A DNA stretch of 64,000 bases from Nannocystis sp. (GTDB taxonomy: Bacteria > Myxococcota_A > Polyangia > Nannocystales > Nannocystaceae), in contig JADJRG010000022.1 in NCBI GenBank assembly GCA_016712315.1, positions 866,522 through 930,521 on the forward strand, written 5' to 3'. The translations under genes and the position numbers were made by a program. The notes beneath the pieces are model-generated. The model saw only the letters and a list, made by a program, of their open reading frames with translations, searched no databases and had not been told where the DNA came from. Of this stretch, positions 16,058 through 59,480 are shown in pieces. The stretch's first letter is position 1, and every line of letters starts with the position of its first letter.

Positions 16058-16843
16058 TCACCCCTCGGCCGTCACCGAGCGCAGCCGCAGCCCGCCGAGC
16101 GACGCCTTCAAGCGCCCGCGCATCTTCTTCAGCTCGCGCGCGTGGAACACCCGCTCGTCCAGCGGCCGCTCGATCCCCTCCGTCTTGTTCATCACGCTCG
16201 CGGGCAGCGACGAGTGCGGCAGCCCGAAGTAGTGCCCCAGCTCATGCGTCAGCACCAGCCGCCCTGCGATCTTCGAGAGGATGATCCAGCGCCGCGAACG
16301 ATCCTCCCGGTCGCGCCAGTGCACCCCGCGGATCTCCCCTGGCTCATCCACGTTCGCCAGCGAGCCCGCCACGAAGACCTGGATCAGCGCCTCATCGTAG
16401 CGCCCTGCCCCGAGCCGATCGCGATCCCGACGGCTCACCACCGCCCCCTCCTCCGGCCGCAACGCCGACGCCGCGCGCACCTCGAAGCTCACCTCGATCG
16501 GCGCGAAGCGGAGCTGCGCCTCGGTCACCTGCCCTGCCAGCCACGCCGCATCGACCACCATACCCGCCGCGTCCGCCGCCACGAACACGTGGATCCCCAC
16601 GCAGCGGCGCGCTGGCGAGCAGCGCGGCGTCGCCTCGACCAGCGCCGCCAGCTCCGCCTCGCCAGGCGATCGCAGCGCCGCCGCGGGCGCGTCGACGCCC
16701 GCCGCCGAGCCCGCGCAAAAACGCGCCTTGGCCGGCGCCGCGACGACCCCCAACGAACCGACCAACAACGCCGCGCCTCCCCACCTGAGGGCGCGTATCG
16801 CTCGCCGGGGCCGCACCGCACGCATCGGCGTTGAGCCTATCAC
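16058..16843 (-). CDS. secreted zinc metalloprotease (HExxH, metzincin-like)
   Basis: The zinc-binding motif VLTHELGHYFGLPHS is present and the N-terminus has a signal peptide. It lies 7 nt downstream of the hydroxylase gene on the same strand. Confidence 0.75.
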   Translation of the reverse strand: MIGSTPMRAVRPRRAIRALRWGGAALLVGSLGVVAAPAKARFCAGSAAGVDAPAAALRSPGEAELAALVEATPRCSPARRCVGIHVFVAADAAGMVVDAAWLAGQVTEAQLRFAPIEVSFEVRAASALRPEEGAVVSRRDRDRLGAGRYDEALIQVFVAGSLANVDEPGEIRGVHWRDREDRSRRWIILSKIAGRLVLTHELGHYFGLPHSSLPASVMNKTEGIERPLDERVFHARELKKMRGRLKASLGGLRLRSVTAEG

Positions 16844-35989: not shown

Positions 35990-36082
35990 AGCCGCCCCGT
36001 CTTAGCCCGAATCCCTGACCGGGTCACCACGATCGTTGCTGCGCCCCCGCCGCGGTGATACCTTCCGCCCCCGGATTTCGCC

Positions 36083-37159
<1,077 letters not shown>

Positions 37160-42899: not shown

Positions 42900-43517
42900 T
42901 CAGTAGGGCCGCTCGTGGAACCACAGGTTAAACGCCCACTTCTCGCCGCGCGCGGGGGCGCAGCCTTGGTGATACGTCCGCGGATCGCAGCGCGTCGTCC
43001 CGGGAAAGCAGTTATAAAAAACTAGGAGCCTGCCTCGGCGCGGCCGCACCGCCACACCGAGGCGCGGGAACGCGGTCTCCCCCCCTTGCTCGACCTCACT
43101 CAGGTACGCCAACGCGGTCACCAGCCGTTGCCCGCCGCGCGCGCAGTACAGCCGCCCCTTCTCCGTCGACAGATCATAGGCGTCGAAGTGTGGCCTGTAC
43201 TCTTGGCCAGCCGCGTAGTGGATCACCTGCAGCGGCTCTGCGTGGCCGAGCGGCAGCCCGATCGCCCCCGCGATCCGTGAACAAGCCGCCAGCACCCCCG
43301 CGTCGTGCGAGTGCTTCACCCACGAACGCGAGCTCGTGCGCCCCCCGCTCACCACCCCACGCGCCGCCCCGCTCACCTGCGATCGCCCGAGCGTGGGCGC
43401 CGCCGCCGCGATCACGCGCGCACACTCATCCGCCGACAAAAAATCGTCCCAGCGATGGATCAGCGGCTCCTCGTTCAGTCGGACGCCTCCGTCGAAGTCG
43501 CGGCGCAGCTCCATCAT
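42900..43517 (-). CDS. 2OG-Fe(II) oxygenase, prolyl-4-hydroxylase-like
   Basis: HFDAYD matches the His-x-Asp iron-binding motif, and the downstream His and RLLVFYN resemble the P4Hc/2OG-FeII_Oxy fold. Confidence 0.75.
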   Translation of the reverse strand: MMELRRDFDGGVRLNEEPLIHRWDDFLSADECARVIAAAAPTLGRSQVSGAARGVVSGGRTSSRSWVKHSHDAGVLAACSRIAGAIGLPLGHAEPLQVIHYAAGQEYRPHFDAYDLSTEKGRLYCARGGQRLVTALAYLSEVEQGGETAFPRLGVAVRPRRGRLLVFYNCFPGTTRCDPRTYHQGCAPARGEKWAFNLWFHERPY

Positions 43518-43641
43518 CGATCACGCCCACCAACGCGTGGAGATCGAGCATAGGTCCCTCGCACCGCCCCTCGCAAGGCCCACACGTCACGAGCGACGAG
43601 ACTTCGCCCCATCGCAGCCTCACCCCGCTATCTTCCTCGCC

Positions 43642-45390
43642 GTGACTGAGCGCTCCCTCGCCGCGTTCCTCCGCTGGACCGATCATCTCCCGCGGCTGCG
43701 AGGCGCCCCAGGGCTCGCGCTCGAAGCACGCCTCGCCCTCTGGCGGCGAGCCGCCCGTGAGATCGCCGCCCGCACCGCCCTCGCCCTCGCCCGCGAGGGT
43801 CACCTCGCCGCGCAGCTCGAAGGCGCCTCGCTGCGCCTCGATCTACGCCGAGGTCACCTCACCTTGCCCCTCCTGCGCCGGGGCCAGCTCGGCCTGCACA
43901 CCGCCGATCTCGACGCCCCCCGCGAACCCGCCCTCGATCACCCAGACGCCCTCATCACCAGCCTCACCGAGGATCTCCGCCTCGACCCAGCCACCCACGC
44001 CCGCCTCGCCTTCGAGCTCCGCGACTCCGCCTTCAACCTCGCCCTCATCCACCACAGCGCGGCGCTTCGCGAGCAAGCGCGTAGCAGCGCCCCCTGCCGC
44101 TCGCTCGATCCAGAGGGCCTCGTGATCAGCGGCCACCCATGGCACCCCATGACCCGAGCGCGCCTCGGCCTGCGCGCCGCCGAAGTGCTCCGCCACGCCC
44201 CCGAGCACCTCGCCTGCGGCGACCTCAACTTCCTCGACGTGCAGACCGACCACCTCAACGTTAGTGGCGACGCCCTCTCCATCCTCCACGTTCTCGCCCC
44301 CCCCGCACCGCCTGGTTTTATCCGCCTCCCGGTCCATCCGGCCCAGCTCAAGCGCCTACGTCGCCGCTTCGCCGCCCTCTGGGGCCACGTGATCAAGGAA
44401 GCCTCGATCCGTCCGCTCCCCGCCAGAGCCCTGCTCAGCCTGCGCACCGTCGAGATCGCCGACCCCGCGCGCCCCTACCACATCAAGCTCGCCCTCGACG
44501 TCGTCACCACCAGCGCGCGCCGCACCGTCTCACCGATGAGCGTCGCCAACGGTCCCCCCCTCACCGCGCTCCTCCAGCGGATCCAAGCGCGAGATCACCA
44601 CACCCGGCCCCTCGTGATCCAGGGGGATCGAGGCGGCGCCGGCCTCAGCGGGGCTCGCTACGGCGAAGACGCCGCGCACCTAGGCGTCATCCTCCGAGGC
44701 GACCCGAGGCCCATCGCCCGCGCCCTCGCCCCCGCCGATCACCGAGGCGCACCCGTCGATCTCTGGGTCTGCGCCGCCCTCGGCGAGCGCTCGCCGGGCG
44801 CCACCAGCACCTTTTTGCAGCAGCTCGCCGCCGGCCTCGATCCGCGCCGCTTCCTCCGGCGCTACCTCGATCTACTGCTCCCCCCTGCGCTCCGCCTGCT
44901 CACCGCCCACGGCGTCGCCCTCGAGGCCCACCTCCAGAACACCGTCGCCGTACGCGTCGGCGGCCAGCTCGTCGGCTTCCTCATCCGCGACCTCGGCGGC
45001 CTCCGCGTCGATCGCGCGCGCCTCGCCCGCGCTGGTCATCACATGTCCTTCGCGCCAGGTTCATTCATCGTCACCGACGATCACCTCGAGGTCCGCGACA
45101 AGCTCGTACACGCGCTCTTTCACGCCCACCTCGCCGAGCTCTTCCGCTGGGTCGAGCGCGACCTCGGCGTCGACGCCGCCGAGTCGTGGTCGCTCGCTCG
45201 TCGCCTCGTCGATCGCCTCTACTCCGAGTGGCGCCGCGAACCTGCGCTCACCGCCGCCTGCGACGACGATCACGCCGCCCTGATCGCCCCCGTCGTCCGC
45301 GCCAAGGCGCTCCTCACCATGAGGATCACCGATCGGAGCAGCGACTACAGCTACATCCGCGTCGACAACCCCCTCGCCGGCGCGCGCTGA
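43642..45390 (+). CDS. IucA/IucC-family NRPS-independent siderophore (NIS) synthetase
   Basis: Family motifs are ISGHPWHPMTRARLGL (GHPxHP region) and KLALDVVTTSARRTVSPMSVANGPPLT, plus a C-terminal FhuF-like region. A GTG start at 43642 was chosen, because the upstream part of ORF 43336.. overlaps the divergent oxygenase gene and looks non-coding. Confidence 0.8.
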   Translation: MTERSLAAFLRWTDHLPRLRGAPGLALEARLALWRRAAREIAARTALALAREGHLAAQLEGASLRLDLRRGHLTLPLLRRGQLGLHTADLDAPREPALDHPDALITSLTEDLRLDPATHARLAFELRDSAFNLALIHHSAALREQARSSAPCRSLDPEGLVISGHPWHPMTRARLGLRAAEVLRHAPEHLACGDLNFLDVQTDHLNVSGDALSILHVLAPPAPPGFIRLPVHPAQLKRLRRRFAALWGHVIKEASIRPLPARALLSLRTVEIADPARPYHIKLALDVVTTSARRTVSPMSVANGPPLTALLQRIQARDHHTRPLVIQGDRGGAGLSGARYGEDAAHLGVILRGDPRPIARALAPADHRGAPVDLWVCAALGERSPGATSTFLQQLAAGLDPRRFLRRYLDLLLPPALRLLTAHGVALEAHLQNTVAVRVGGQLVGFLIRDLGGLRVDRARLARAGHHMSFAPGSFIVTDDHLEVRDKLVHALFHAHLAELFRWVERDLGVDAAESWSLARRLVDRLYSEWRREPALTAACDDDHAALIAPVVRAKALLTMRITDRSSDYSYIRVDNPLAGAR

Positions 45391-46444: not shown

Positions 46445-47572
46445 CTACTTCTTGCCCTTCTTCTTGTCCTCCGCGGGCAGCGGCTCGAAGGACGAGGTGA
46501 GCAGCGAGCGGTGCTTCTTCATCGACCCGCAGTCCTTGACCTTCTTATTGTGCTTGTCGAAGGCCTTGCCGCAGCTCGGGTAGAGCCCCTCTGCCTTCCA
46601 CTTCTGCTGGCGGATGTCGTTCAGGCAGTAGGCGCCGTCCGGCGTCCACTCCGCCTCGATCTTCCAGTCGTCGGCGGCGCGCGCGTTGATCTGCGGGGCG
46701 AGGTGATCCCAGATGTCGATCTGGTGCCCCGAGACCGTCCACGGCGTGCCGTCGCCGCAGTAGTCGGCGCGCGCCATCCGCGTGCACGCCTGGTGGTAGT
46801 CGGCGAGGGAGACCTCATCGCAGTCCTTCGACTTCTTCTTCCCCTTCTTGTCCTTGCACTGCTCGGCGTCGGCCCAGGGCCGGTAGCCCCACTGGACGCA
46901 GTGAGCGATCACCGCGTCCGAACAGGCGAGCGTGACCAAGCTCGGATCGTCGATCCGATCGCCCGTGACGTCATCCCACCCGTTGGCGACCGGGATCGCT
47001 GGGACCGCGGCCCCGTAGTCATCGACGCACGGGCTCTGCCACTCGTCATCGCTGCCCTCGAGCCGATACGAGAGCTCGTAGAGCAGCACGTCATCGGTCT
47101 CGGCGTCGGGATCGGGATAGACGTCATCGATCCGCAGCGTGTAGGAGACGAGCGAGTCTTGTCCGCCCTCGGAGACCCGCCCGATCAACCCGAGCTCGCT
47201 GCCCTTCAGGTCGACGCCCGAGCGCACGAGCTCGGCGCCATCGACGACGAAGGCGACCTCAAATTCGCTCCCGTTGAGGCGGAACTCGTTGAGCTTGAAG
47301 TCGTTCAGCTTGAAGTCGTTGAGCCGGAACTCGTTGAGGCGGAACTCGTTGAGCTTGAAGTCGTTCAGCTTGAAGTCGTTCAGCTTGAACTCATTGAGCT
47401 TGAAGTCGTTCAGCCTGAAGTTGTTCAGCCTGAAGCTGTTCAGCCTGAAGTTGTTCAGCCTGAAGTTGTTGACTTCTACGGTTCGGAACGCGCCTTCACC
47501 GTCGACCGGCCCGACGCCCGAGTAGCAGCCGCTCACCACCACCGCCAGCAGAACCATTGAAAATCCGCGCAT
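46445..47572 (-). CDS. lipoprotein with 13-14 tandem pentapeptide repeats (NxF[RK]L) and a C-terminal Cys/Lys-rich domain
   Basis: Signal peptide MRGFSMVLLAVVVSGCYS from ATG 47570-47572. It is followed by NNFRLNNFRLNSFRLNNFRLNDFKLNEFKLNDFKLNDFKLNEFRLNEFRLNDFKLNDFKLNEFRL and then a domain with 10 Cys. Confidence 0.75.
   Translation of the reverse strand: MRGFSMVLLAVVVSGCYSGVGPVDGEGAFRTVEVNNFRLNNFRLNSFRLNNFRLNDFKLNEFKLNDFKLNDFKLNEFRLNEFRLNDFKLNDFKLNEFRLNGSEFEVAFVVDGAELVRSGVDLKGSELGLIGRVSEGGQDSLVSYTLRIDDVYPDPDAETDDVLLYELSYRLEGSDDEWQSPCVDDYGAAVPAIPVANGWDDVTGDRIDDPSLVTLACSDAVIAHCVQWGYRPWADAEQCKDKKGKKKSKDCDEVSLADYHQACTRMARADYCGDGTPWTVSGHQIDIWDHLAPQINARAADDWKIEAEWTPDGAYCLNDIRQQKWKAEGLYPSCGKAFDKHNKKVKDCGSMKKHRSLLTSSFEPLPAEDKKKGKK
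47262..47472. repeat. 15-bp tandem repeat array, about 14 copies, with a 41-nt higher-order duplication
   Basis: The unit is gtt(g/c)ag(c/g)(c/t)(t/g)gaa(g/c)t(c/t). Positions 47281-47321 and 47341-47381 are identical. The array encodes the pentapeptide repeats. Confidence 0.9.
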
Positions 47573-47650
47573 ACCCGCCCTCTCTCCCAACCAGACGCTC
47601 TCATCCTTGATCAGGTCCCAATAGAGTGCAAGCAAAAAATTAGCGGTACA

Positions 47651-50600
47651 CTAATGCGATAGTGTCGCACATACCCGCACCCCGACGAACTCCGAGCGAT
47701 AACCCGCGTCGAGGGTCTCTCGGGACATCACCCGCATCTGCAGCGCGTCCATCGCGAACCCCCCGCCGCGAGCCACGTAGCTCGACGGCTCGAGCGACGA
47801 CGAGACCCACTCGAACGCGTTCCCAGCCATGTCCTGGACCCCATACGGGCTCGTCGACGCAGGGTACGCGCCGACCTCATCGAGGCCCATCAGGCGCGGA
47901 TCTTGGCCATAGGTCCGGTCGAAATTCGCCTCATTCGGGGCGACGGTGTTCCCATGTGGGTAGAAGCGGGAGTCGGCCCCACGAGCGGCTCGCTCCCACT
48001 CATAGTCCGTACAAAGACGCGCCCCTGGGAGCCGCCCGCTACCGTCCAGCCAGCCGACGTACGCGAGCGCATCGACGGCGGTGATCCCGACGACGGGGTA
48101 TCGCTCCCACACCCCCGGTGTCAAATGACCCCCACCCGGATATGTGAACAATTGCCCGCTCGCGACCTCGTACGGCGCGTCACGGTCCCAAGAGAGCACC
48201 CACGCGCCGGGCCCCTCGCGGCGCAGGGTCCGCGGCATATGCTTCTGGCGCAGCTCCTCGTCTGCTCCCTCGAGGAACTCAATATAATCGGCGAAGGTCG
48301 CCTCATGCGTCGCGATCAAGTAGCTCCCGGTGGAGACTTGATGGAGCGGCACCGCGTTCATGAAGCTGCGCCGCAGATCGGGGTCTCCCGCGCCTCCGAA
48401 CAAGAACCTACCCGCTGGGATGTATGTATATCCCGGCGGAATATCATCGGTCTTGCGCATCGTGACATCGACCGGGAGCCGCTCGTCTCGCTCGACCAAT
48501 ACGGGCAGCTTTAGGTCCGCGTATCCCTCGCTTGTGACAGTCAACAAATAGGATCCTGGATCGACCATCACGGGCTCTAGCGCGCGAACGACGCCTAGAT
48601 CGCGCATCTCCGCCAACCTCGCCTTGCCTCCTTCATCAAACACATAGGCCGCGATCGCCACACGCGCCGCAGGCGGTGTGACCGTGAGGTAGAGGTGCGC
48701 CGCCCCCTTCAGTCGCGCGATCCTGGTCCCCTCGCGGTCATAGAGCGCTAACCGCGCGACCAGCTCATCCCGCGACACACCGCCGTCGAACGCCGCGCCC
48801 TTCTCCAGATGCAGCACCCGCTCAAGCAGGACATCCGCCAAGAACATCCGGATGTCCTCGCGACTATTATCAAGGCTCAACGCCGTCTCCGCCGCCTGGG
48901 AGGCCTCCGCGAATTCACGCGCCGCGACCGCACGCTCCGCCTGCGCCTTGGCCCACAGCTCCTCACCTTGTGCCACCGCCTGGCTATCAAACCACTGGAG
49001 CGCCGCGGCGCTCTGCTGCTGAGCGCTGCGCGCGGACACCTCTGCGTCACCGAGGCGCCGCTGGGCCTCGCGAAAGCTCGCGTCCACACGCTCGCGCAGC
49101 GCCCGCTGCCCTTGCACCCACAGCCCCCCATACGTCGACAGCAGCGCCAGCGGCACCGCGACGATCAACGCCCGCCGCAGCCGCCGCGCCCGCGTCGCCT
49201 CACGCGCGCTCACGACCAGGAACTCCGACTCGCGCGGCCGCAGCCCTGCGTGCTCGATCGTCCCGGCCTCTGCGACCTGGCTCGCGCTCCACAGCCCCAC
49301 CTGTCCGCGGCCGAGTCGCTCCCACTCGCTCGCCGCCGCCTCCAGCCGGTGCAGGACCGCCCGCGCCTCCTTCTCCTCCTCGAGCCAGCCCGCGAGCTGC
49401 GCCCAGCCGCCCACAAGCGCCTCATGCGCGATCTCGTAGACCATCCGCTCGCCGGCCTCTTTGACCACCAGCAGCCGCCCACGCACCAACGCGTCGAGCG
49501 CCGCCTTCGACGCCTCCCCTGCGGCCGCCAGCTCGTCCAACGTCAACGACGCCCGCGTGTTGTCCAGCGTCACCAGGCGCATCAACAAGCGCCGCGCCGC
49601 CGCCCGCTGCGCCGGCAGCAGCCCCGCCAGCACCCCGTCCGCGTGGCGAGCGAGCGCCCCCGTCACCCCGCCGATCTTCCGCAGCTCCGCCGTCGAGATC
49701 ACGGACGTCGACGTGTCGCGGCTCTCCCACAGCTCCGCCAGCGCGAACTGCAAGAGCGGCAGCGATCCCTTCACCCCCGCCTCGACCAGCTCATCGACCA
49801 GCTCATCGCTCTCAAACGCGACCCCGTGCGCCTGCGCTGGCCCGGCGATCGCCTCCCGCGCCCCCTCCGGCGACAGCGGCCGCAGCAGGAAGATCCCCCG
49901 CGTCACCTCATCACCGAGCCCTGGCACCGTCGCCACGCGGGTCAAGAAGTCCCCGCGCACCGTCGCCATCACCTTCAGCCCCGGGATCCCGGCGAGCAGC
50001 CGCACCACCAACGGGCCGATGAGCGCCACCTCCGCCGGCTCCGCGATCGTCACGAACTCCTCGAACTGGTCGATGAAGATCATGCAGCCCCCGGCCTCGC
50101 CGAGCTGCTTCCGCAGCGCCCGCACCAGCGCCTCCGGCTCGCTCTTCAGCAGCGTCGACACCTCCTCCTCGCCGAGCCCGAAGCCCCGCGCCACCACCGC
50201 GACGAACGACTGCCGCGGGTAACGCCCCGGCGTCATGATCACGGTGCGCCACGTCTTGCCAGGGTCGAGGTTCCCCTCGTTCACCATCGGCACCACGCCT
50301 GCGCGGCACAGCGACGACTTGCCGACCCCTGAGTCGCCCGCGACCACCACGAACGAGTCCGCGCGCAGACGCTCGACCACCGCGCGGATCTCAGCCGAGC
50401 GGCCGAAGAACAGCGAGCGGTGCTCCGCCTCGAACGCCTGCAGCCCGCGGTACGGGTTCCCGGTCGGGATCCCCGGCCCCCCGCGCCGCTGCGGCGCCGC
50501 CACGACCTCGAGCGCGCTGCGCAGCTCCTCCGCCGAGGCGAAGCGCTGGTACGGGTCTCGCTCGAGGCAACGATCGATGATCCCCGCCAGGCGCGCGTCC

Positions 50601-51583
50601 ACACCTGGCGCGAGGGACAGCAGCGGCAGCGGCTCCTTCTCCTGCACCAGCATCGCCAGGTCGAACGGAGAGTCCGCGTCGTGCGGCGGCTTACCGCAGC
50701 AGAGGATGTACATCAGCACGCCGAGCGCATACACGTCAGAGCGCCGCGACGCCGGATCAGCCAGCCACAGCTCCGGCGCCATGTAGTGAGGCGTGCCCAT
50801 CACCGTGCCTTGCCGGGTGATCGACGCCGCCCCCCCGCTCCACCCGTCCTTGAAGCGCGGGCTCTCGTCGACGCGGCGCTGCACCTTCGGCGTCGGCGCG
50901 TTGCCGGCCACCGGCTCGAGCTTCGCCGTGTCCGCGAGCCGCTGCACGACCATCTGGCGGGCGTTGTTCGCCGCCCGCATCACCAGGTCCTGCCTCGTCT
51001 CCGGGACGATCCCCCGCTGCGTCGACGAAGCAGACGACGACGCGATCGTCCGGTCACCTGGCACATCGACCAGCTTCGCCAGGCCGAAGTCCAGCAGCTT
51101 CACCTGCCCGAACTCGTCGATCAGCGCGTTCGAGAGCTTGATGTCGCGGTGCAGCACCCCTTGCCGGTGAGCCGCCCCAAGCCCGCGCGCCAGCCCGATC
51201 CCGATCTCCAGCACCTTCGCCCACGGCAGCGGCAGCTCCAGGTCCCCGAGGCTCTGCCCGCGGATGTACTCCGAGACCAGATACAGCCGCCCCTGGATCT
51301 CCCCCACCCGGTAGATCCCCATCACGTTCGGGTGCTGAATCCGCGCGACCGCCCGCGCCTCCACCAAGAAGCGCTCGCGCTCGACCGGGTCGGGCCGAAA
51401 CGACCCCAAGAACTTCACCGCGACCGGCCGGTCGAGCACCAGATCCTGGGCGAGGAAGACCTGCCCCATGCTGCCGCGGCCGAGCGGCCGGACGATCCGG
51501 TACTCATCAAACTCGCCGGGGGGCGTCCACGTCGCCTCTTCAAGCACCCGCGGCCCTCCTCGGCGCGCGTGGATCGCCAGCAC
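47651..51583 (-). CDS. Ser/Thr protein kinase fused to STAND (NACHT-like) NTPase and a C-terminal formylglycine-generating-enzyme (FGE-sulfatase) domain
   Basis: Kinase motifs HRDIKLSNAL and DFGLA. The P-loop is VVVAGDSGVGKSSL. The C-terminal 300 aa carry FGE-sulfatase signatures (ARGGGFAMD, YRSEFVGVRVC). Confidence 0.85.
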   Translation of the reverse strand: MLAIHARRGGPRVLEEATWTPPGEFDEYRIVRPLGRGSMGQVFLAQDLVLDRPVAVKFLGSFRPDPVERERFLVEARAVARIQHPNVMGIYRVGEIQGRLYLVSEYIRGQSLGDLELPLPWAKVLEIGIGLARGLGAAHRQGVLHRDIKLSNALIDEFGQVKLLDFGLAKLVDVPGDRTIASSSASSTQRGIVPETRQDLVMRAANNARQMVVQRLADTAKLEPVAGNAPTPKVQRRVDESPRFKDGWSGGAASITRQGTVMGTPHYMAPELWLADPASRRSDVYALGVLMYILCCGKPPHDADSPFDLAMLVQEKEPLPLLSLAPGVDARLAGIIDRCLERDPYQRFASAEELRSALEVVAAPQRRGGPGIPTGNPYRGLQAFEAEHRSLFFGRSAEIRAVVERLRADSFVVVAGDSGVGKSSLCRAGVVPMVNEGNLDPGKTWRTVIMTPGRYPRQSFVAVVARGFGLGEEEVSTLLKSEPEALVRALRKQLGEAGGCMIFIDQFEEFVTIAEPAEVALIGPLVVRLLAGIPGLKVMATVRGDFLTRVATVPGLGDEVTRGIFLLRPLSPEGAREAIAGPAQAHGVAFESDELVDELVEAGVKGSLPLLQFALAELWESRDTSTSVISTAELRKIGGVTGALARHADGVLAGLLPAQRAAARRLLMRLVTLDNTRASLTLDELAAAGEASKAALDALVRGRLLVVKEAGERMVYEIAHEALVGGWAQLAGWLEEEKEARAVLHRLEAAASEWERLGRGQVGLWSASQVAEAGTIEHAGLRPRESEFLVVSAREATRARRLRRALIVAVPLALLSTYGGLWVQGQRALRERVDASFREAQRRLGDAEVSARSAQQQSAAALQWFDSQAVAQGEELWAKAQAERAVAAREFAEASQAAETALSLDNSREDIRMFLADVLLERVLHLEKGAAFDGGVSRDELVARLALYDREGTRIARLKGAAHLYLTVTPPAARVAIAAYVFDEGGKARLAEMRDLGVVRALEPVMVDPGSYLLTVTSEGYADLKLPVLVERDERLPVDVTMRKTDDIPPGYTYIPAGRFLFGGAGDPDLRRSFMNAVPLHQVSTGSYLIATHEATFADYIEFLEGADEELRQKHMPRTLRREGPGAWVLSWDRDAPYEVASGQLFTYPGGGHLTPGVWERYPVVGITAVDALAYVGWLDGSGRLPGARLCTDYEWERAARGADSRFYPHGNTVAPNEANFDRTYGQDPRLMGLDEVGAYPASTSPYGVQDMAGNAFEWVSSSLEPSSYVARGGGFAMDALQMRVMSRETLDAGYRSEFVGVRVCATLSH

Positions 51584-51731
51584 TCCGGCCCGCGCGACGC
51601 ACCTGCGTGGAGTTCAGCACCCTCAGAGCCCTGGCGACAGACGACAACACTGCGATCTTGCCCAGCTTTGCACAGCCCTTCACAGCGCGGCAAGCGACCC
51701 CGACCGCGGCCGCCAGCGTACACTCTCGCCC

Positions 51732-52706
51732 ATGCAGACGCGCACGCTCGCCGGCTATGAGCACGTCTATGAGCTCGAGTGCGCGGGCAGCCGCGCCTTC
51801 ATCGCCATCCACGCCGCCCTCCGCGGCCGCGCCTTCGGAGGCGTCCGGATCCGCGCCTATGCCAGCGACGAGCACGCCCTCACCGACGCCCTCGCGCTCG
51901 CCGAGGCGATGACCCGCAAGGTCGTGCTCGCCGGCATCGACGGCGGCGGCGCCAAGTCCGTGCTGCGACTCCCGCCCCCGCATCGCCGCGCCGCAGCGAT
52001 CCACCAGCTCGGCCGCTTCATCGACTCCTTGGGCGGCCGCTACCAGTGCGGCGGCGACTACGGCTTCACCGCCGCGGACGAGGCTGTCCTCCGCGCCGCC
52101 ACGCGCCACGTCGCCTGCGGCGATCTCGCCGAGGCGACCGCCCGCTCCGTCGAGCTCGCGATCTTCGCCGCCGCGGACCCGCGCGTCGTCGCCCTCCAGG
52201 GCCTCGGCGCGGTCGGTCGCCCGCTCGCCCGCCGCCTCCTCGCCCGCGGCGTCCGGGTCATCGCCGCCGACCCTACCTGGCCCGAAGACCTTGTCCCTGG
52301 GGACACCCTGCAACGCGTCGATCCTGCCGCGATCTACGGCGTCGACTGCGACGTCTTCGCCCCCTGCGCGCACGGCGGCGTGCTCGACGCGTCGACGATA
52401 CCGCGCCTGCGCGCCGCCCTCGTCTGCGGCGCCGCCAACAACCCCTTCGCCGCCGCCGACGACGTCGACCGCCTCAACGCCCGCGGCGTCGCCTACATCC
52501 CCGACGTCATCGCCAACGCGGGCGCCACCATCGTCGGCGCCTCCAACGCCCTCGACGAAGAGGCCCACATCGACCGTCGCTTCGCCGCGATCCCCGCGCT
52601 CATCCACGATCTCCTCGATCGCTCCCGCAGCGAGCGCCGCTCCACCCACTGGATCGCCCACGAGCTCGCCGACCAGCGGATCGCCGCGCTGCGCCGCCCC
52701 GCCTAG
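51732..52706 (+). CDS. Glu/Leu/Phe/Val dehydrogenase family protein (leucine-dehydrogenase-like)
   Basis: The Gly-rich catalytic region is LAGIDGGGAKSV and there is a Rossmann segment (LQGLGAVGRPLARRL). The start is ATG 51732. Confidence 0.8.
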   Translation: MQTRTLAGYEHVYELECAGSRAFIAIHAALRGRAFGGVRIRAYASDEHALTDALALAEAMTRKVVLAGIDGGGAKSVLRLPPPHRRAAAIHQLGRFIDSLGGRYQCGGDYGFTAADEAVLRAATRHVACGDLAEATARSVELAIFAAADPRVVALQGLGAVGRPLARRLLARGVRVIAADPTWPEDLVPGDTLQRVDPAAIYGVDCDVFAPCAHGGVLDASTIPRLRAALVCGAANNPFAAADDVDRLNARGVAYIPDVIANAGATIVGASNALDEEAHIDRRFAAIPALIHDLLDRSRSERRSTHWIAHELADQRIAALRRPA

Positions 52707-53251
52707 CGCTGCAGCGCGTCGATCTGCTCGAGCACCAGCGCCGACGTCGGCCGATCGGAGCTGCGCTCGCCGATGTACTGCCACACGATCACGCCCTCTC
52801 GACTGATCACGAACACCGCCGGGATCGCCACCTCGCCATCAACGACGCCGTAAGCTCGAGCGATCCCGAGCCCCACATCCTGGACCAACGGGAACTCGAT
52901 CCCCAGCTTCGCCGCGAACTTCTTCGAGTCCTCCGGCGGATCAGCGCTGATCCCGACGATCCCCACCGAACGCGCCGCCAGCTCCCCCTGAATCTTCGCC
53001 AAGTCGCCGAACTGGCGACGACAGAAGGGTCACCAAAACCCCCTGTAAAAGACCAGCACCGCCGGCCCCTGCGCCCGTAGCGCGCCCAGGCTGACCGCGC
53101 CGCCCGCCGCGTCGACCGCCGAGAATTCTGGCGCTGCGCTCGCGCTCTTCGGCGCCGCTGGATCGGGCGCCGACACCTTACACGCCAGCCCCAGCGCCAC
53201 CCCGGCCAGCATCGACAACAGCCCGCGACGTCCCTTCGTCATGGTCACCAT
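52703..53251 (-). CDS. thioredoxin-fold redoxin (AhpC/TSA-TlpA-like) lipoprotein with in-frame TGA at the first Cys of its WCxxC motif. Candidate selenoprotein, or else a pseudogene.
   Basis: Track ORFs 53030..53251 and 52703..53002 are in the same frame. They are separated only by TGA (53030-53032) plus 9 sense codons. The read-through gives ...VLVFYRGFW-[TGA]-PFCRRQFGDLAKIQ..., which is the classic redox-motif position. The N-terminus has a lipobox (GLAC). Confidence 0.5.
53003..53019 (-). other. SECIS-like RNA hairpin immediately downstream of the in-frame UGA
   Basis: In the mRNA: UGA, then 10 nt, then a perfect 6-bp stem GUCGCC/GGCGAC with the apical loop AGUUC, which contains GU. The loop G is about 18 nt from the UGA, within the usual bacterial SECIS range. 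Confidence 0.4.
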
Positions 53252-53252
53252 T

Positions 53253-54356
53253 CTAACCCGAGTTCACCGCTCGCTGGTCATCCGCCGCCCCGATCGCCGC
53301 GCAAGGACCCGGCGCCCCCGGCAACGACAGGCAATACGCGACGAACGCCTCAAACACCGGCCGCGGCGCGCCCACCGTCGGCAGCGCGTGGTAGTGCAGC
53401 GCAGGCAGCGCGTTCACCTCGAGGATCGCCGCCTCCCGCCAAGCCTCCGCGCCACCTCGCGGCGCCCGCACAAACGAGGCCAGCGGCCCGCGCAGATCCA
53501 CCCCGCCCACGTCCACCCCCAAGCGAGCGCACGCCGCCTCCGCGACCTCGAACCATGCACGATCGATCGCGTCGCTACGATCGATCACCTCCGCCTCCTC
53601 GCTCGTGATCTCGATCGATGCGCCGGCCGGCAGCGGCTCCTCCAGATCGAGCCCCAGCGCCTCGAGGTGCGCCGCCATCGCCTCCTCCGCCTCGATCACG
53701 TCCATCGCCACCAGCGCCGGCGCGGCCCACGACCCCCGCCGAGGATCCTCATTCAACGCCGCGATCGCCGCCGCCGCGCTCGTGACACCGTCCCCGCGCA
53801 GCAGCGGCCGCACGATCTCCGCCGCCGCCACGCAGCGCCCGCCGATCACCGTCAGCCGCACGTTCGTCCCCTCCAGGTGCGGCTCCAGCAGCGCCTCCTC
53901 GTCGCGGTCGATCGCCTGAGCCCGCGAGATCGCCCGCGCAAGCCCCTCCATCTCCCTGATCCCCGGCGTCACGCCGACCCCGCGGTTCCCCCAGTTCGGC
54001 TTCACCACCACCGCCCCAAAGCGCCGCAAGAAGCCCTGCGCGGCCGCTCCGCGCGGATCATCACCTTCATCCAAGAGCAGGTCTGGAGGGACAGGTAGGC
54101 CGATCGCCGCCAGCAGCTCCCTGCTCACCTTCTTGTTGTTCGACAGCGTCTGCGCCACCTGCGTCAAGAACGGCGAGCGCGTCTTCGAGATGATCACCGA
54201 GCGCCCCTCCCCACGCAGCCGCAAGAAGAAGTCCGTGCGCGCCTGGCTCAGCGGCTCCGCCTTCGCCCCCAGCCGCGCCGCCGCCTGCATGATCAGCAGG
54301 TTCGTCCGGCTCCACCGCCGCGCGCGCGCCCCCTCGTCCTCGTGCTCGGCGCTCAT
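53253..54356 (-). CDS. ATP-grasp ligase, cyanophycin-synthetase-N-terminal / RimK-like
   Basis: The segment SKTRSPFLTQVAQTLSNNKKVSRELLAAIGLPVPP...FGAVVVKPNWGNRGVGV parallels the CphA ATP-grasp region (...KPLDGNHGRGV). There is no Mur-ligase part. It is 1 nt from the redoxin start, and its own start overlaps speE by 4 nt. Confidence 0.7.
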   Translation of the reverse strand: MSAEHEDEGARARRWSRTNLLIMQAAARLGAKAEPLSQARTDFFLRLRGEGRSVIISKTRSPFLTQVAQTLSNNKKVSRELLAAIGLPVPPDLLLDEGDDPRGAAAQGFLRRFGAVVVKPNWGNRGVGVTPGIREMEGLARAISRAQAIDRDEEALLEPHLEGTNVRLTVIGGRCVAAAEIVRPLLRGDGVTSAAAAIAALNEDPRRGSWAAPALVAMDVIEAEEAMAAHLEALGLDLEEPLPAGASIEITSEEAEVIDRSDAIDRAWFEVAEAACARLGVDVGGVDLRGPLASFVRAPRGGAEAWREAAILEVNALPALHYHALPTVGAPRPVFEAFVAYCLSLPGAPGPCAAIGAADDQRAVNSG

Positions 54357-55261
54357 AACGAGGGCAACGTCAACGACGCCATCGCCTCGGCGCCGGTGAT
54401 CACCTTCCCTGGCTCTTCGAGCAGCTCCGCCAGCAGCGGCGGGATCGTCAACGCCGCCTCATGGGCGATCCGCGAGTACACCCGCAGCCCCGTCAACCGC
54501 CGGATCCTCGCCTCGAGATCCGCGGGCATCGCCACGATCGGCGCGCAGCTCGCCAGCGTGAACGCCCACAGGCAGTGAAAGGACGGCACCATCGCCAGCA
54601 GCACCCGCACGTGCGGGAACACCGAGGCCAACGTCGATCGCACCGTCCGCAGCGCGCTCAGGTCGACCGGGTCCGCCTCCCCCGACTGCACCACCAAGAT
54701 CCCGTCTTCCGCCATCACCCGCCGCACCTGCTCAAAGAACGGCGCGCTCCACAAGTGCAGCGAAGGCCCCTCCTCCACCGGATCTGTCAGATCGGCGATC
54801 ACCACATCCCAAGCCCCATCCGCCGAGCCCGCCAGCGTCGCCATAAAATCCTCCGTGCGCGACTCGACCCGCGGATCCTCAAACGCCCCTGCGCTCCACC
54901 CTGGCAGGTGCTCGCGGCACAGCGCCACCACCTCCGCGTCGACGTCCACCGCCACCACCGACTCGATCGTCGGGTGCCTTAGCACCTCACGCAGCGTCGC
55001 TCCTTCGCCCGTGCCGCCGATCAGCACACGCCGAGGCGCCCCGTGGATCACCAGCGCCGGGTGGATCAACAGCTCGTGATACATCGCCTCATCCGCGGCC
55101 GTCGACTGGACGTGCCCGTCCAGGAACAGCGCGCGCCCGTAGCCGGGCGTATCCGCGATGATCACCTCTTGAAACGGCGTCTCACGGCGGACGATCAGCC
55201 GCTCCACCTCGATCTCGATCGCCACCCCGCCGTACGACGGCTCCTTCACGAAGATCGGCAC
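54353..55261 (-). CDS. speE: spermidine synthase-like aminopropyltransferase
   Basis: VLIGGTGEGATLREV...VVAVDVD...VIADLTDP matches the SpeE SAM and polyamine sites. There is an N-terminal tetramerisation-like region. Confidence 0.85.
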   Translation of the reverse strand: MPIFVKEPSYGGVAIEIEVERLIVRRETPFQEVIIADTPGYGRALFLDGHVQSTAADEAMYHELLIHPALVIHGAPRRVLIGGTGEGATLREVLRHPTIESVVAVDVDAEVVALCREHLPGWSAGAFEDPRVESRTEDFMATLAGSADGAWDVVIADLTDPVEEGPSLHLWSAPFFEQVRRVMAEDGILVVQSGEADPVDLSALRTVRSTLASVFPHVRVLLAMVPSFHCLWAFTLASCAPIVAMPADLEARIRRLTGLRVYSRIAHEAALTIPPLLAELLEEPGKVITGAEAMASLTLPSL

Positions 55262-55831
55262 CTACACACGCTCCTCTCGTCGCCTCTTGGCTACCACGTC
55301 TCCCTCGCGGCGCGCTCGCCCAGGCCGCCTCGAGATCACGAAGCCGCTCGCGAGCAGCCCCAGCAGCGCGAGCCCCGTCATCGCGCTCAGCGCGCTCCCG
55401 CTCGCCCCCAGCGCCTCGCCCGTGTGGATCGCGAACAGCCACCCGGTCAGCCCGCGCCGCTTGGACGGCGCCGCCTCGATCACCGCCAGCGATCCGTCGA
55501 GCAGCACCCGCGTCTCCGCCTCATCATCGAGCCACACTTGATACGGCTCCTCTGTCCCTGAGGGCAGGGTGATATCCGTCACCGCAGCCCCGCCCGCCGC
55601 CGCCGACGCCGCCGCCGCCAGCGCGTCCAAGCTCGGCCTCGTGCTCGTCGTCGCCGTCACCCGCGGCAGCGGCGTCCGCAGCGCCTCGCGGAAGATCAGC
55701 GCGATCCCGCTCACCGTCACCGTGGCGATCAGCAGCGCTGAAGCCAGCCCGATCCACCGGTGCCACCGCCGCCACGCCCGCCCGCTCATAGCCACTGCCC
55801 CACCCGCCACGGCGTACGCATCCGCGCCCAC
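55262..55831 (-). CDS. PepSY-associated TM helix protein
   Basis: The motif WRRWHRWIGL is followed by a TM helix, a periplasmic segment and a second TM helix. This type of protein is commonly encoded next to TonB-dependent siderophore receptors. The true start may be at MSGRAW (about 55789). Confidence 0.65.
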   Translation of the reverse strand: MGADAYAVAGGAVAMSGRAWRRWHRWIGLASALLIATVTVSGIALIFREALRTPLPRVTATTSTRPSLDALAAAASAAAGGAAVTDITLPSGTEEPYQVWLDDEAETRVLLDGSLAVIEAAPSKRRGLTGWLFAIHTGEALGASGSALSAMTGLALLGLLASGFVISRRPGRARREGDVVAKRRREERV

Positions 55832-58254
55832 GCGTCGATCCGCCGCGCCCCGATCGCCCCCGCCGTCCCCCGCTGCTTCGCCCGCCGCGCCTCCGCCTGC
55901 GCCCGCGCCCCGCGCGGCAAGAAGTCATGCGCGAAGCCCAGGCTCAAGTAGAACGTCCGCGGTCGCATCGCCAAGATCCCGCGGTTCTCATCGTCGGTGC
56001 GCATGAACCACGACTCATTGAGCAGGTTCTTCACCCCGAAGGTCACCTCGATCTGCCACGCGTCGGGCAGCGGCGCGCGCAGCCGCGCGAACGCCCCCAT
56101 CAGCGTATACGCCGGAATTTGCCCCGTCGCCCCGCTCGCGTCGAAGCCCGCGGGTTTGTTCGCGTAGTCCGTAAACTGCGGGCTGTTGTGGCTGACGTCC
56201 GCCCCCAGCTTCAGCCCGAACGGCCACGCGTACTCCGCCGACCCCCACACCTCGTGCGACGGGTACCACGCCAACCGGTTGCCCTTGTACTGCCCCGCCG
56301 AGATCCTGCTCTCGGTCCACGAGTAGCCGGCGCTCACCCCCAGCCCCTCCGCCGCCTCCCAGATCTCACCTGGCTCCCAGGACACCTCCGTCTCGATCCC
56401 CCACACGTGCGCCCCCGCGATCCGATCGATCATCGTCTCGCCCACGTCCGAGAGGTCTTGATAGTGGCGATACCAGCCCGTCACGTCCGCCTCAACCCCC
56501 GCCAGCTCCATCAGCTTCACCCCGCCCTCCACCATGTCGGCGATCTCTGGGTTGAGCTGGAAGTTCATGTCGCTGGTCGCCGTATCGACCTGCAAGAACT
56601 GTGAAGGCCCGAACGAGCGCCCGTAGCCGGCGAATATCGCCACCTCATCGATCGGCCCGAACCACAGCGACCCCGCGGGCAGCACCTGCCAATACGTCCG
56701 CGACAGCGCCCGCTGGCTCAGGTTATTGCGCCCCGCCAAGCTCGCCACCTCCAGCCGCGCGCCGCCGGTGATCACCAGCCGCGAGTCCAGCAGGTTCAGC
56801 TTATCGTCCACATACAGCGCGTAAGCGGCGATCCGCGCGTCCGAGTCCCGGCGGATCTGCGGGTCAGGTTGGTCCTGGTCGAGCGTCAGCCCCTCGCAGC
56901 TCGCCGCCAGCGCCCCGCTGTATACCCCTGGCTGATCGGGCGGCGAGAGCTCCCGGCACTCGCGGCTGCGCCCGCGCTCCAGCATCACCCGCCCGCCGAA
57001 GGACACGTCCTGGAACGCCTCGTTCTTGTGGCGGATCCGCAGCGCGTAGCGCGGCTCGATCCCTCCAACGTCATAGCGACGCGGCCGAAAGTACAGCGTC
57101 GGCGGCTCGTTCTCCAGGCTACGCAGCCGCTCCATCACCGACATCCGCGTCGTGTGGTTAAAGAAGACGATCGTCTGCAGCTCATGATCCTCGCGCGGGC
57201 GCCAGCGAGCGCGCAGCGCCGTGCCGATCCGATCGCCGATGAACCGATCATACGGCCGCACCGAGCGGAAGCGATCCCCCTCGGTGTACTGCTTCTCATC
57301 CAGCCCGCCTGGCAAGTTTGAGGCCTCGTAGAACAAGTGCGTCGTCGACTGCACGTCCAACGATCGCCTCGGCGAGTACGCCAGCTTGACGAGCCCCCCG
57401 TGCGCCTGGAACTCGCTGTGTTGCCGGTAGTTCCGGCCGAAGCGCGGCGCGTACTCGAAGTACATACCCAAGCCCCGGTGCGTGCCCCCGTACGAGGCCG
57501 CCGCGCCCGCGTCACCGAACTGATCCGACTGCGCGAACACGGCGATCCGCGGGTTCTGCGGGATCGGCTTCGAGATCAAGTTAAAGACCCCGCCCGAGGT
57601 CCGCGGCCCGAAGCGCACCGACGAGCCGCCGCGCACCACGTCGTAGTTATCGATCGAGAAGATCGACAGCGGGAACAAGCTGAGCTGCGGCTGCCCGTAC
57701 GGAGCCGGCGCGATCGGCACCTCATCCAACATCACCGTCGCCTCCGAGGAGAGCCGCGGGTTCGCCCCGCGCACGCCCACGTTCAGCTTCGTGCTCGTCG
57801 ACCCGATCCCCGCGTTCCCCTCCACCGAGCGCACCCCTGCCGCGCGGTCCAGCACCTCGCCCACCGACGAAGAGCCGCGGTCCTTCGCCGCCTCGCTCGT
57901 GATCGTCGAGCGCCCGCCGGCGTGCCGGAACAGATCGAAGCGAGACGCCGTGCCCAGCAGATCCGTCGTCACCACGATCAGCCGGCGCATCCCCCCCGCG
58001 TCGTCATCCTCGCCCTCCGCCTCCTCGCCCCCCGCCTCCGCGATCGGGCGCGCCCGCGCCGGCGCGATCGCCTCCTCCTCAGGCGGCGCCTCGTCCGGCA
58101 GCTCCTCCGCGCTCGCCGCGATCGGCGACCTGTCTTCCGAAGCAGGCGAGACCTCCCGGGACGGCGACGCCACCGACTCCGGCCCGACGAACACGCGCTC
58201 GACCGGCGGCGCGGCGGCCAGCGCCAGCGCCACCCCTACAAGAAGCGCCGCCAT
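55786..58254 (-). CDS. TonB-dependent outer-membrane receptor
   Basis: Signal peptide, then a plug domain (NAGIGSTSTKLNVGVRGANPR...DVVRGGSSVRFGP), then a long beta-barrel. The canonical terminal strand RTFYLSLGFAHDF is present but is followed by a further 44 aa with no stop. Confidence 0.85.
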   Translation of the reverse strand: MAALLVGVALALAAAPPVERVFVGPESVASPSREVSPASEDRSPIAASAEELPDEAPPEEEAIAPARARPIAEAGGEEAEGEDDDAGGMRRLIVVTTDLLGTASRFDLFRHAGGRSTITSEAAKDRGSSSVGEVLDRAAGVRSVEGNAGIGSTSTKLNVGVRGANPRLSSEATVMLDEVPIAPAPYGQPQLSLFPLSIFSIDNYDVVRGGSSVRFGPRTSGGVFNLISKPIPQNPRIAVFAQSDQFGDAGAAASYGGTHRGLGMYFEYAPRFGRNYRQHSEFQAHGGLVKLAYSPRRSLDVQSTTHLFYEASNLPGGLDEKQYTEGDRFRSVRPYDRFIGDRIGTALRARWRPREDHELQTIVFFNHTTRMSVMERLRSLENEPPTLYFRPRRYDVGGIEPRYALRIRHKNEAFQDVSFGGRVMLERGRSRECRELSPPDQPGVYSGALAASCEGLTLDQDQPDPQIRRDSDARIAAYALYVDDKLNLLDSRLVITGGARLEVASLAGRNNLSQRALSRTYWQVLPAGSLWFGPIDEVAIFAGYGRSFGPSQFLQVDTATSDMNFQLNPEIADMVEGGVKLMELAGVEADVTGWYRHYQDLSDVGETMIDRIAGAHVWGIETEVSWEPGEIWEAAEGLGVSAGYSWTESRISAGQYKGNRLAWYPSHEVWGSAEYAWPFGLKLGADVSHNSPQFTDYANKPAGFDASGATGQIPAYTLMGAFARLRAPLPDAWQIEVTFGVKNLLNESWFMRTDDENRGILAMRPRTFYLSLGFAHDFLPRGARAQAEARRAKQRGTAGAIGARRIDAWARMRTPWRVGQWL

Positions 58255-58256
58255 GG

Positions 58257-59444
58257 CTACGGCTCGACCACGACGCGGGTCGCCCCGCGCAGGCGCAGGC
58301 TCTCGATCGGATCGTCGAAGAGCGGCGAGAGATCGTCGTGCACCACCACCGACCAGACATCCGGCTGCTCCGGCGTCGGCTCGATCACCCGGTACACCAG
58401 CCCCAGCGGATCGATCCCATAAAGGACCCCATCGACCCGCGCCAGCCCGTCGATGTCGCGGCCCGCCAGCAGCCCGTCGATCACCACCCCCGTCGACGCA
58501 GGGGCCGCCCCAGGCGCCGCCATATCGACGTGGAACAGCGCATTACGATCCACCGGCATGATCGCCGGATCCTCCGCCCGCACCGCCGCCAGCAGCCGCC
58601 CTTGCGGGTCCTCCGTCAGATCGCCCGCGACCCCCACACGATCCTCAAACAGCGCCTCCACTTCGCAGAGCGGGGCGCACGCGTAGTACTTCGGGTCCAA
58701 CGTGCGGTCGTTCGGGAACACGCAGTGCGACGGCGCCTCGAGGAACGAGCTCGGGATCGAAAAGACCCCTCCCCGCGCGTCGAAGCCGTTGCCCGCCTTA
58801 CCCGCCGAACCGACCACCAACGTGTCACCAACGAAGCCCAAGCCGCTGAGCATCTGCCGCCAGTAGCACGCGTCCGTAGCCGCGTCTGAGACCGGCCCAG
58901 GCATGAACGTATAGCGCTCGACCGCCACGTGGTTGTCGGTGCGTCGCCAGTCCGGCACCGTCAACGACACCAGCCCCCATTCATCGTTCAACGCGTCGTA
59001 GCTGAGCCCCCACAGCCCGCGCTGCGGGTGCCACGCCAGGTCACGCACGCCGAAGCGCTCCAGCGAGCCGTCGCCGACCGACAGCGCGCCCATCGAATCG
59101 TCCAGCCACAGGTGCCCGACCCGCGCCAGCCGACAGCCCGACCCGCCGTCTTCACACTCACGGCGCGGATCGTAGAGGTACAAACCAGCGCCGATGTAGC
59201 GCCCCTCGCCGTCGATCGCGAAGTTCGCGGTGAAATTCGAGCGCGGCCCGCTCAGCTTGGCGTTCACCAGCAAGATCGCCTCGCCGCTGGTCACCTGCTC
59301 CGAAGAACAGCCCGGACAGACCTCGATCTCCGCCGGCAGGCCGTCCCCTGCGAAGCCCGTCGGCGGCTCGACCGTCAGCTCGACGCAGCCACCGAGCAAC
59401 ATCACGACACCGGCCCATCGATGAAAACTGAAAATCACTTTCAT
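58257..59444 (-). CDS. hypothetical lipoprotein, first gene of the receptor operon
   Basis: The signal peptide MKVIFSFHRWAGVVMLLGGC starts at ATG 59442-59444. The rest is a beta-rich domain. The gene ends 2 nt before the receptor gene. Confidence 0.6.
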   Translation of the reverse strand: MKVIFSFHRWAGVVMLLGGCVELTVEPPTGFAGDGLPAEIEVCPGCSSEQVTSGEAILLVNAKLSGPRSNFTANFAIDGEGRYIGAGLYLYDPRRECEDGGSGCRLARVGHLWLDDSMGALSVGDGSLERFGVRDLAWHPQRGLWGLSYDALNDEWGLVSLTVPDWRRTDNHVAVERYTFMPGPVSDAATDACYWRQMLSGLGFVGDTLVVGSAGKAGNGFDARGGVFSIPSSFLEAPSHCVFPNDRTLDPKYYACAPLCEVEALFEDRVGVAGDLTEDPQGRLLAAVRAEDPAIMPVDRNALFHVDMAAPGAAPASTGVVIDGLLAGRDIDGLARVDGVLYGIDPLGLVYRVIEPTPEQPDVWSVVVHDDLSPLFDDPIESLRLRGATRVVVEP

Positions 59445-59480
59445 TTTCTTGAGAGTGGTTATCACTGGAAACCGCCTCGG

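Follow-up and report, generated by a model that had tools for sequence, protein, structure and literature searches.

Prx-like thiol:disulfide oxidoreductases have been recognised as a bacterial selenoprotein family since 2005–2006 and are common in Deltaproteobacteria (PMC1794560). In the Global Ocean Sampling (GOS) data, the family that Zhang and Gladyshev termed "Prx-like 1, pfam00578, UxxC" was represented by 225 members containing selenocysteine (Sec) and by 2,740 homologues with cysteine (PMC2398784, Table 2), and a review of 2026 lists it as a high-confidence prediction with WP_010940744.1 as the exemplar (PMC13188914). Here we describe a redoxin gene located at positions 52703..53251 of the minus strand in a 64-kb stretch of DNA (the window; contig JADJRG010000022.1) from a metagenome-assembled genome (MAG) of Nannocystis sp. 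The gene contains an in-frame TGA followed by a small hairpin and is annotated as two separate proteins. We consider it probable, at a level of about 0.87, that this UGA encodes Sec through the hairpin at 53019..53003 and that the whole is one thiol-disulfide oxidoreductase gene.

Judging by its sequence, the gene matches the Prx-like (PF00578, UxxC) selenoprotein family. This placement was made by the family definers, which here are the PF00578 domain, the UxxC pair of Sec and Cys, the occurrence of TGA-containing homologues elsewhere and a bacterial Sec insertion sequence (bSECIS). The described members of the family likewise have an AhpC/TSA domain, Sec in the first position of UxxC, many homologues with Cys instead and, just behind the UGA, a SECIS hairpin. 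The copy in the window differs from them in its lipoprotein-type signal, in its position at the end of a row of TonB-receptor, PepSY_TM, spermidine-synthase-like and ATP-grasp genes, and in its origin from a Nannocystis MAG. Our data overturn nothing: this family of selenoproteins, the place of Sec in it and the mechanism were all established before.

A single reading frame interrupted by TGA

The complete gene has 182 codons with the ATG at 53251 as its start and 179 with the one at 53242 (the MTK start), which is used in the GenBank and Joint Genome Institute (JGI) gene calls, and it ends with a TAG at 52705..52703. Its extent follows from translation, from Pfam domains that span the TGA and from the presence of the same TGA in related loci. 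The sole internal stop of the frame 53251..52703 is the TGA at 53032..53030, so that the translation reads MVTMTKGRRGLLSMLAGVALGLACKVSAPDPAAPKSASAAPEFSAVDAAGGAVSLGALRAQGPAVLVFYRGFW, then the TGA, then PFCRRQFGDLAKIQGE, and runs on to DALQR before the terminal stop. This UGA opens the redox motif U-P-F-C, as residue 74 in first-ATG numbering or 71 when counted from MTK, and is the predicted Sec codon, as suggested by the alignment of homologues and by its conservation in three lineages and in at least 120 metagenomic genes.

When ORFs are called mechanically, the frame falls into an upstream open reading frame (ORF) of 73 aa (53251..53030) that ends in the TGA and a downstream ORF of 99 aa (53002..52703) with a TTG start. 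An earlier note on this DNA had reported that the two ORFs share one frame, are separated only by the TGA and nine codons (PFCRRQFGD), and give VLVFYRGFW-U-PFCRRQ upon read-through; both statements were re-derived from the translation of the minus strand and proved correct. In GenBank the halves appear as consecutive proteins of the Nannocystis sp. MAG, namely the 70-aa hypothetical protein MBK8264544.1 (locus tag IPK80_24775) and the 99-aa peroxiredoxin family protein MBK8264543.1. Both ORFs are halves of one gene, and the annotation should be corrected to a single predicted selenoprotein. TGA is at the same time the commonest ordinary stop in the window, where 30 of the 50 candidate coding ORFs (stop-to-stop frames) end with it. 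From this we conclude that the genetic code is the standard one, and genome-wide reassignment of TGA was rejected.

Other assemblies (loci L001, L003, L002 and L176–L193) contain this gene with an identical TGA. Both the TGA and the split of the source GenBank MAG recur in the Logan assemblies SRR11674035 and SRR14932504, in the JGI contig L002, which has about 90% DNA identity to the window, and in 18 further loci from 18 JGI/SRA samples, to which a third allele of the locus is common. Altogether more than 20 independent assemblies, which fall into three sequence lineages, carry the TGA, with the same gene order throughout. Between the window and L002 the synonymous divergence (dS) is about 0.3, and the ratio of nonsynonymous to synonymous divergence (dN/dS) amounts to 0.13 upstream of the TGA (mature part) and 0.23 downstream of it, which indicates purifying selection on both halves. 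Over the 37-nt stretch that contains the UGG codon, the UGA and the hairpin, not a single substitution separates the two sequences. Clean assemblies contain no further stops or frameshifts in the gene. Two protein records, P0012 and P0017, appear to bridge the TGA; they are frameshifted calls from noisy assemblies of the same locus, in which single bases are missing from the TTTT and GGGGG homopolymers on either side of the site; one such loss puts the translation out of frame (...VTLLSSPVRRLGEDSG...), and another brings it back.

Protein family and the active site

Domain searches were run with Cys substituted for the in-frame stop. The PF00578 (AhpC/TSA) model matched residues 39–157, across the TGA, with 103 bits against a cut-off of 26 (E 1.4e-29), and the Redoxin domain was found with E 7.7e-22; together the AhpC-TSA and Redoxin matches cover residues 36–165 and thus straddle the TGA. 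Among the NCBIfam models the best was the SelL-related redox protein (NF040769), which matched the N-terminal 100 residues with 65 bits against a cut-off of 120 (E 6.5e-18); the scores were 53 bits against 170 for ResA, 43 against 140 for BCP, 31 against 123 for DsbE, 22 against 272 for AhpC and 22 against 230 for TlpA.

The best matches among sequences of solved structures are ResA-type extracytoplasmic thiol-disulfide oxidoreductases (4nmu, 1.2e-12). The G-T-W-C-K-P-C of ResA aligns residue for residue with G-F-W-U-P-F-C, which places the TGA at the N-terminal, attacking Cys of the CxxC site. In the TGA column Cys is invariant in eight protein homologues and in 28 genomic Cys forms, and in the full-length homologues, which are 28–40% identical to our protein, this Cys lies within the signature VLVFYRGxWCPxC. 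The proposal of the earlier note that Sec occupies the first Cys of WCxxC is thus borne out by the homologues and by the ResA alignment alike. The same note had left it undecided whether this was the resolving or the attacking Cys; the attacking part of that statement stands, and the resolving part has to be dropped. The second redox Cys of UxxC (UGU, 53021..53023, minus strand) aligns with the second Cys of ResA and is presumed to be the resolving partner, via a selenenylsulfide with Sec. It occurs in all the Cys-form homologues matched, a result that the search pattern itself required; the metagenome search pattern described below also required this residue, and its presence in those matches is uninformative.

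With respect to the ResA/TlpA/CcmG proteins (PDB 4nmu, 1st9), which give the best structure matches at 1e-12, the window protein shares the WCxxC alignment and an N-terminal export or anchor signal. It differs from them in having Sec in place of the attacking Cys, in the ResA score given above and in the lack of cytochrome-c maturation genes near the gene. Assignment to the ResA/TlpA/DsbE cytochrome-c-maturation class was rejected, since the scores are under the cut-offs and no ccm or res genes were detected among approximately 40 scanned genes of the window; the likeness in fold and motif is nevertheless retained. A typical peroxiredoxin (BCP/PrxQ or AhpC) was rejected as well: the BCP and AhpC scores are under the cut-offs, and the position of Thr in TxxC, three residues ahead of the peroxidatic Cys, is held by Sec or Cys in a site of the CxxC type. 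The SelL-related family NF040769, which is related to PRX-like2 (cd02970), has in common with our protein the signature FYRGxWCPxC, present also in GenBank entries named "peroxiredoxin-like family protein". Eukaryotic SelL, however, has UxxU where the window protein has UxxC, and filing the protein under NF040769 was rejected on account of the score below the 120-bit cut-off. Eight other Sec-form relatives behaved similarly on this model, scoring 38–55 bits or giving no match at E up to 1e-8.

A lipoprotein signal peptide, MTKGRRGLLSMLAGVALGLA followed by Cys, is predicted at 53180..53242 (minus strand). It was read from the sequence by eye: there is a basic n-region with a hydrophobic core, and the Cys is preceded by a small residue in a lipobox-like GLAC. 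All three lineages retain the lipobox with its Cys (GLAC in two of them and ALAC in L002), and many full-length Cys relatives bear similar lipobox signal peptides.

The hairpin downstream of the UGA

After the UGA the mRNA reads CCCUUCUGUC-GUCGCC-AGUUC-GGCGAC, forming a perfect 6-bp stem whose onset is 10 nt past the UGA. The 5' arm GUCGCC occupies 53019..53014, the loop AGUUC 53013..53009 and the 3' arm GGCGAC 53008..53003, so the bSECIS-like hairpin as a whole extends over 53003..53019 of the minus strand; it was delimited by folding, covariation and published criteria. Taken alone, the hairpin has a folding energy of −9.5 kcal/mol (z = −4.4), and one of 200 shuffled sequences was equally stable.

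According to the published bSECIS criteria, the loop is 3–9 nt long with a G in one of its first two positions, usually followed by G or U, the stem has 4–16 bp, the distance from the UGA to the loop is 16–37 nt and the minimum free energy (MFE) is at most −7.5 kcal/mol (PMC13188914). The window hairpin, with a loop of 5 nt, a stem of 6 bp, G at the second loop position followed by U and −9.5 kcal/mol, lies within all these limits, and its UGA-to-loop distance of 16 nt coincides with the lower bound. We applied the same constraints, in our own strict and bulge-free implementation, to the relatives of the gene: 69 of the 111 Sec forms passed, as compared to one of the 28 Cys forms (Fisher p = 5e-9). 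The median best stem was 7 bp in the Sec forms and 3 bp in the Cys forms (p = 2e-13), and the composition-corrected stability z was −1.33 and −0.06, respectively (p = 2e-8). This contrast shows that the hairpin belongs to the TGA-containing genes and not to the protein family as a whole. Nearly all the Sec forms fold a hairpin, which starts 13–17 nt past the UGA.

Pairing was then analysed in a class of sequences defined solely by AGUU at +20..+23, with no selection on pairing, which comprised 46 distinct sequences including that of the window. For the stem formed by columns 14–19 and 25–30, 80.4% of the cells were paired as against 51.8% in shuffled alignments, 85 cells showed double-sided changes as against 31, and the covariation score was 0.673 as against 0.209; in none of 500 shuffles were the paired, double-sided or covariation values reached. 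Compensatory changes were found at all six stem pairs, while controls with the 3' arm slid out of register gave covariation of at most 0.25, and RNAalifold independently arrived at the same stem (15–19/25–29, loop 20–24). The stems encode unlike peptides (RRQFGD, LRQLAE, NSELRS, ARQLAG and others), and the pairing is therefore not explained by protein conservation. The MFE fold of the 48–66-nt context, an alternative longer hairpin (15–23 with 28–37), was examined and rejected, with 56.5% pairing versus 55.5% in shuffled alignments and covariation of 0.168 versus 0.170.

A second class, defined by GAGCUGG at +19..+25 (26 sequences), has its hairpin moved by 3 nt (16–23/27–34), and in it the choice between the synonymous Leu codons CUA and CUG in one arm covaries with the Val (GUA) or Ala (GCN) codon facing it in the other (CG:10, UA:10). 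Over the region +13 to +40 of the metagenome loci L058–L175, at least three hairpin registers could be distinguished, whose loops (AGUUN, GGN and GGUC) are centred near +22, +25 and +29.5. Hairpins that covary against coding constraints and shift their register in this way could help to refine the models of bacterial SECIS, which are called incomplete by the field.

The SECIS-like hairpin with a 6-bp stem and the loop AGUUC, which had been noticed 10 nt downstream of the UGA before this analysis, is thus present, and exactly that register is backed by covariation, RNAalifold and the bSECIS criteria. Like the SECIS of E. coli fdhF, the archetype of such elements in bacteria, it lies in the coding region just 3' of the UGA and carries G-U in a small apical loop. 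The two elements have no sequence similarity, though, and in contrast to the fdhF element the window hairpin has a short perfect stem of 6 bp without a bulged U, stands with its spacing of 16 nt at the lower bound of the model and belongs to a family in which the register shifts by at least 3 nt between subgroups.

Distribution of the Sec form

The JGI metagenome contigs were scanned for TTYTAYMGNGGNNNNTGGTGACCNTWYTGY, i.e., F-Y-R-G-x-W-TGA-P-[FY]-C. This pattern was found in at least 120 contigs, with about one match or fewer expected by chance according to our own estimate. In the listed matches the TGA is flanked by an open frame of homologous sequence before and behind it, and downstream the frame runs into the conserved ...AISVD/ISPQ... 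core; the C-terminal part has 110–135 residues in most of them.

The reflection of this group in protein databases was assessed by an exhaustive HMMER search of 1.84 billion representative proteins, for which the query was the stretch of 108 residues encoded past the TGA and which yielded 1370 matches at E up to 0.001. Among the best 150 of them (P0019–P0168), as many as 80 are short gene calls beginning just past the Sec column (MYCRTQ..., MFCRKQ..., VFCRRQ...), 48 are full-length WCxxC proteins and the remaining 22 are longer proteins in which a regular expression detected no WCxxC. The proportion of relatives cut after the Sec column suggests that unrecognised selenoprotein genes of this redoxin family are common in public annotation. 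The mis-annotation thus appears to be systematic, with 80 of the best 150 relatives truncated at the N-terminus and W-TGA-P[FY]C present in at least 120 contigs.

Selenocysteine machinery and the host lineage

Within the window ARAGORN detected no tRNA, and no tRNA-Sec was detected either there or in the 176 fetched sequences. A Pfam scan of approximately 40 window ORFs returned no SelA, SelB or SelD, and a search of all the loci with regular expressions for SelA and SelB signatures was also negative. In full-text searches we found no literature linking Nannocystis with selenocysteine, selenoprotein or selenium, and the BSepDB and deep-Sep supplements contained nothing on Nannocystaceae.

The myxobacterial source implied in the earlier note agrees with the name given in GenBank, Nannocystis sp. 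Plesiocystis is a member of the Nannocystaceae. Plesiocystis pacifica SIR-1 is listed as a Sec-utilizing organism with six selenoproteins, Haliangium ochraceum is listed with three and Myxococcus species with two to three, M. xanthus being among the Sec users of that list (PMC5029168, Table S2). A SECIS-bearing UGA kept under purifying selection would be hard to explain without a working Sec system, and the redoxin gene implies that this Nannocystis lineage would be capable of Sec decoding. Myxobacterial use of selenoproteins would in that case extend to an exported redox enzyme.

The window also contains a class-I release factor gene at 36059–37159 (plus strand) with PCRF and RF-1 domains. 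The PAT tripeptide along with GGQ identifies its product as RF1 (prfA) and not the UGA-reading RF2.

Alternative explanations

Some of our observations weigh against Sec insertion at this codon. The redoxin reaches none of the curated NCBIfam cut-offs; its highest score is the 65 bits against 120 obtained with the SelL-related model. In a 66-nt context the folding is no better than that of shuffled sequences (z −1.1), and the MFE fold of the wider context is a different, longer hairpin. No selA, selB, selD or tRNA-Sec gene lies within the 64-kb window, and no close orthologue, in either Sec or Cys form, was found by a peptide-pattern scan of 185,579 species-representative genomes, in which all matches were remote Cys forms (full-length identity of at most 38%) and none came from Nannocystis. 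Metagenome and Logan contigs served for the comparison with relatives in their place. A scan of the whole window against Rfam at gathering thresholds gave no match either; this result weighs little because, to our knowledge, there is no general bacterial SECIS model in Rfam.

The absence of Sec machinery genes in the 64 kb and of close orthologues in any of the representative genomes scanned would fit a situation in which the conserved UGA is not read as Sec at all, the machinery having been lost or never acquired, and the codon serves for low-level read-through by a near-cognate tRNA (Trp or Cys) or for regulated termination. We regard this as improbable. A covarying, TGA-specific hairpin that agrees with the bSECIS model has no role in near-cognate read-through, the 37-nt stretch that includes the UGG codon, the UGA and the hairpin remained unchanged between lineages at dS of about 0.3, and Plesiocystis, a relative within the family, is a documented Sec user. 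The earlier note had named a nonsense pseudogene and a base-call error as the alternatives to a selenoprotein, and neither withstands the comparison of assemblies. Although one base change is enough to convert a Cys codon (TGC or TGT) into TGA, and the gene is indeed annotated in GenBank as two fragments, a decaying copy would hardly show the same TGA in three diverged lineages with dN/dS of 0.13 and 0.23 on its halves and with no extra stops or frameshifts in clean assemblies, and at least 120 other genes have TGA in the same column with a hairpin downstream; the three lineages and the purifying selection make a pseudogene very unlikely.

A sequencing or assembly error in the source assembly might have been suspected from the homopolymer indels near the TGA in some noisy assemblies of the locus (the P0012 and P0017 calls), but the TGA itself is identical in more than 20 independent assemblies produced from different runs and by different pipelines (GenBank MAG, Logan, JGI), and we treat an error as excluded for all practical purposes. 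There is also hardly any room for two genuine small genes, which the GenBank and JGI annotation presents as one for a secreted peptide of 70–73 aa and one for a peroxiredoxin fragment of 99 aa: a single thioredoxin-fold domain crosses the junction, the 99-aa piece alone is devoid of the active site and of the first beta-strand, and the nine intervening codons are the conserved PFCRRQFGD, including the second active-site Cys. The candidate selenoprotein redoxin put forward in the earlier note is, on the other hand, supported by the pairing of Sec and Cys in one column, by the conservation of the TGA under selection, by the covariation of the hairpin and by the at least 120 metagenomic TGA genes.

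Proposed mechanism and possible function

With the UGA at 53032..53030 read as Sec, the product would be a thioredoxin-fold oxidoreductase of approximately 18 kDa belonging to the AhpC/TSA–Redoxin superfamily, with a ResA/TlpA-like "Prx-like" sequence and with Sec as the N-terminal nucleophile of its W-C-x-x-C site. By analogy with the established bacterial mechanism, the hairpin is expected to act as a bacterial SECIS during translation: SelB-GTP carrying Sec-tRNA(Sec) would bind the hairpin loop and, competing with RF2, bring Sec to the UGA, after which the ribosome would carry on through the remaining 108 codons. The lipoprotein-like N-terminus suggests that the mature protein is probably anchored to a membrane on its periplasmic side, where the selenolate may attack substrate disulfides or peroxides, and the intermediate may be resolved through a selenenylsulfide between Sec and Cys77 (first-ATG numbering).

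It is tempting to consider the protein as a membrane-anchored periplasmic selenol reductase of an aerobic myxobacterium, which would work together with the TonB-receptor, PepSY_TM, spermidine-synthase-like and ATP-grasp genes ahead of it in taking up or processing a polyamine-derived metallophore or some other imported oxidised substrate. We put this forward as a speculation that is more probably wrong than right by a wide measure; if true, this would be a physiological role undescribed for any Prx-like selenoprotein.

Genomic context and other features of the window

The gene immediately upstream of the redoxin (53253..54356, minus strand) clearly encodes an ATP-grasp ligase of 367 aa, as judged from PDB sequence matches. 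The protein has no Pfam match at E up to 1e-4 and matches the ATP-grasp domain of cyanophycin synthetase (6e-21) as well as GshAB and RimK. Its stop codon is located only 10 nt ahead of the MTK start of the redoxin, and for this reason the two genes are probably co-transcribed. Both belong to a same-strand row at 52703–59480 (minus strand) that encodes an unknown protein of about 381 aa, a TonB-dependent receptor, a PepSY_TM protein, a spermidine-synthase-like protein, the ATP-grasp protein and, as the last, the Sec-redoxin. The order of the row is identical in all three lineages and in more than 20 assemblies. The composition of the row suggests that it may be a metallophore or polyamine-related unit of uptake or biosynthesis. 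Elsewhere in the window, at 43219–45390, there is a siderophore-type synthetase gene of the IucA/IucC-FhuF type.

On the other side, the redoxin gene faces a convergent Glu/Leu/Phe/Val dehydrogenase gene (51468–52706, plus strand), with which it shares the palindromic CTAG at 52703–52706 that provides a TAG on both strands.

Four other same-frame junctions of long frames with high G+C content at third codon positions (GC3) occur across TGA in the window, at 41575–41577, 45388–45390, 16058–16060 and 62862–62864. As candidates for a second selenoprotein, three of them were rejected. The TGA at 41575–41577 parts two unrelated genes, those of a VWA protein and of an N-formylglutamate amidohydrolase (FGase); the one at 45388–45390 parts IucA/IucC from a PRPP-synthetase-like gene; and the one at 16058–16060 parts an M10-peptidase-like ORF from a fatty-acid hydroxylase ORF.

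A gene at 47651–51583 (minus strand) encodes a fusion protein of 1310 aa, in which a Ser/Thr protein kinase and an nSTAND1 NTPase (2.4e-100) are combined with a C-terminal FGE-sulfatase domain, and it is followed on the same strand by the gene of an ADYC-domain protein (46445–47650).

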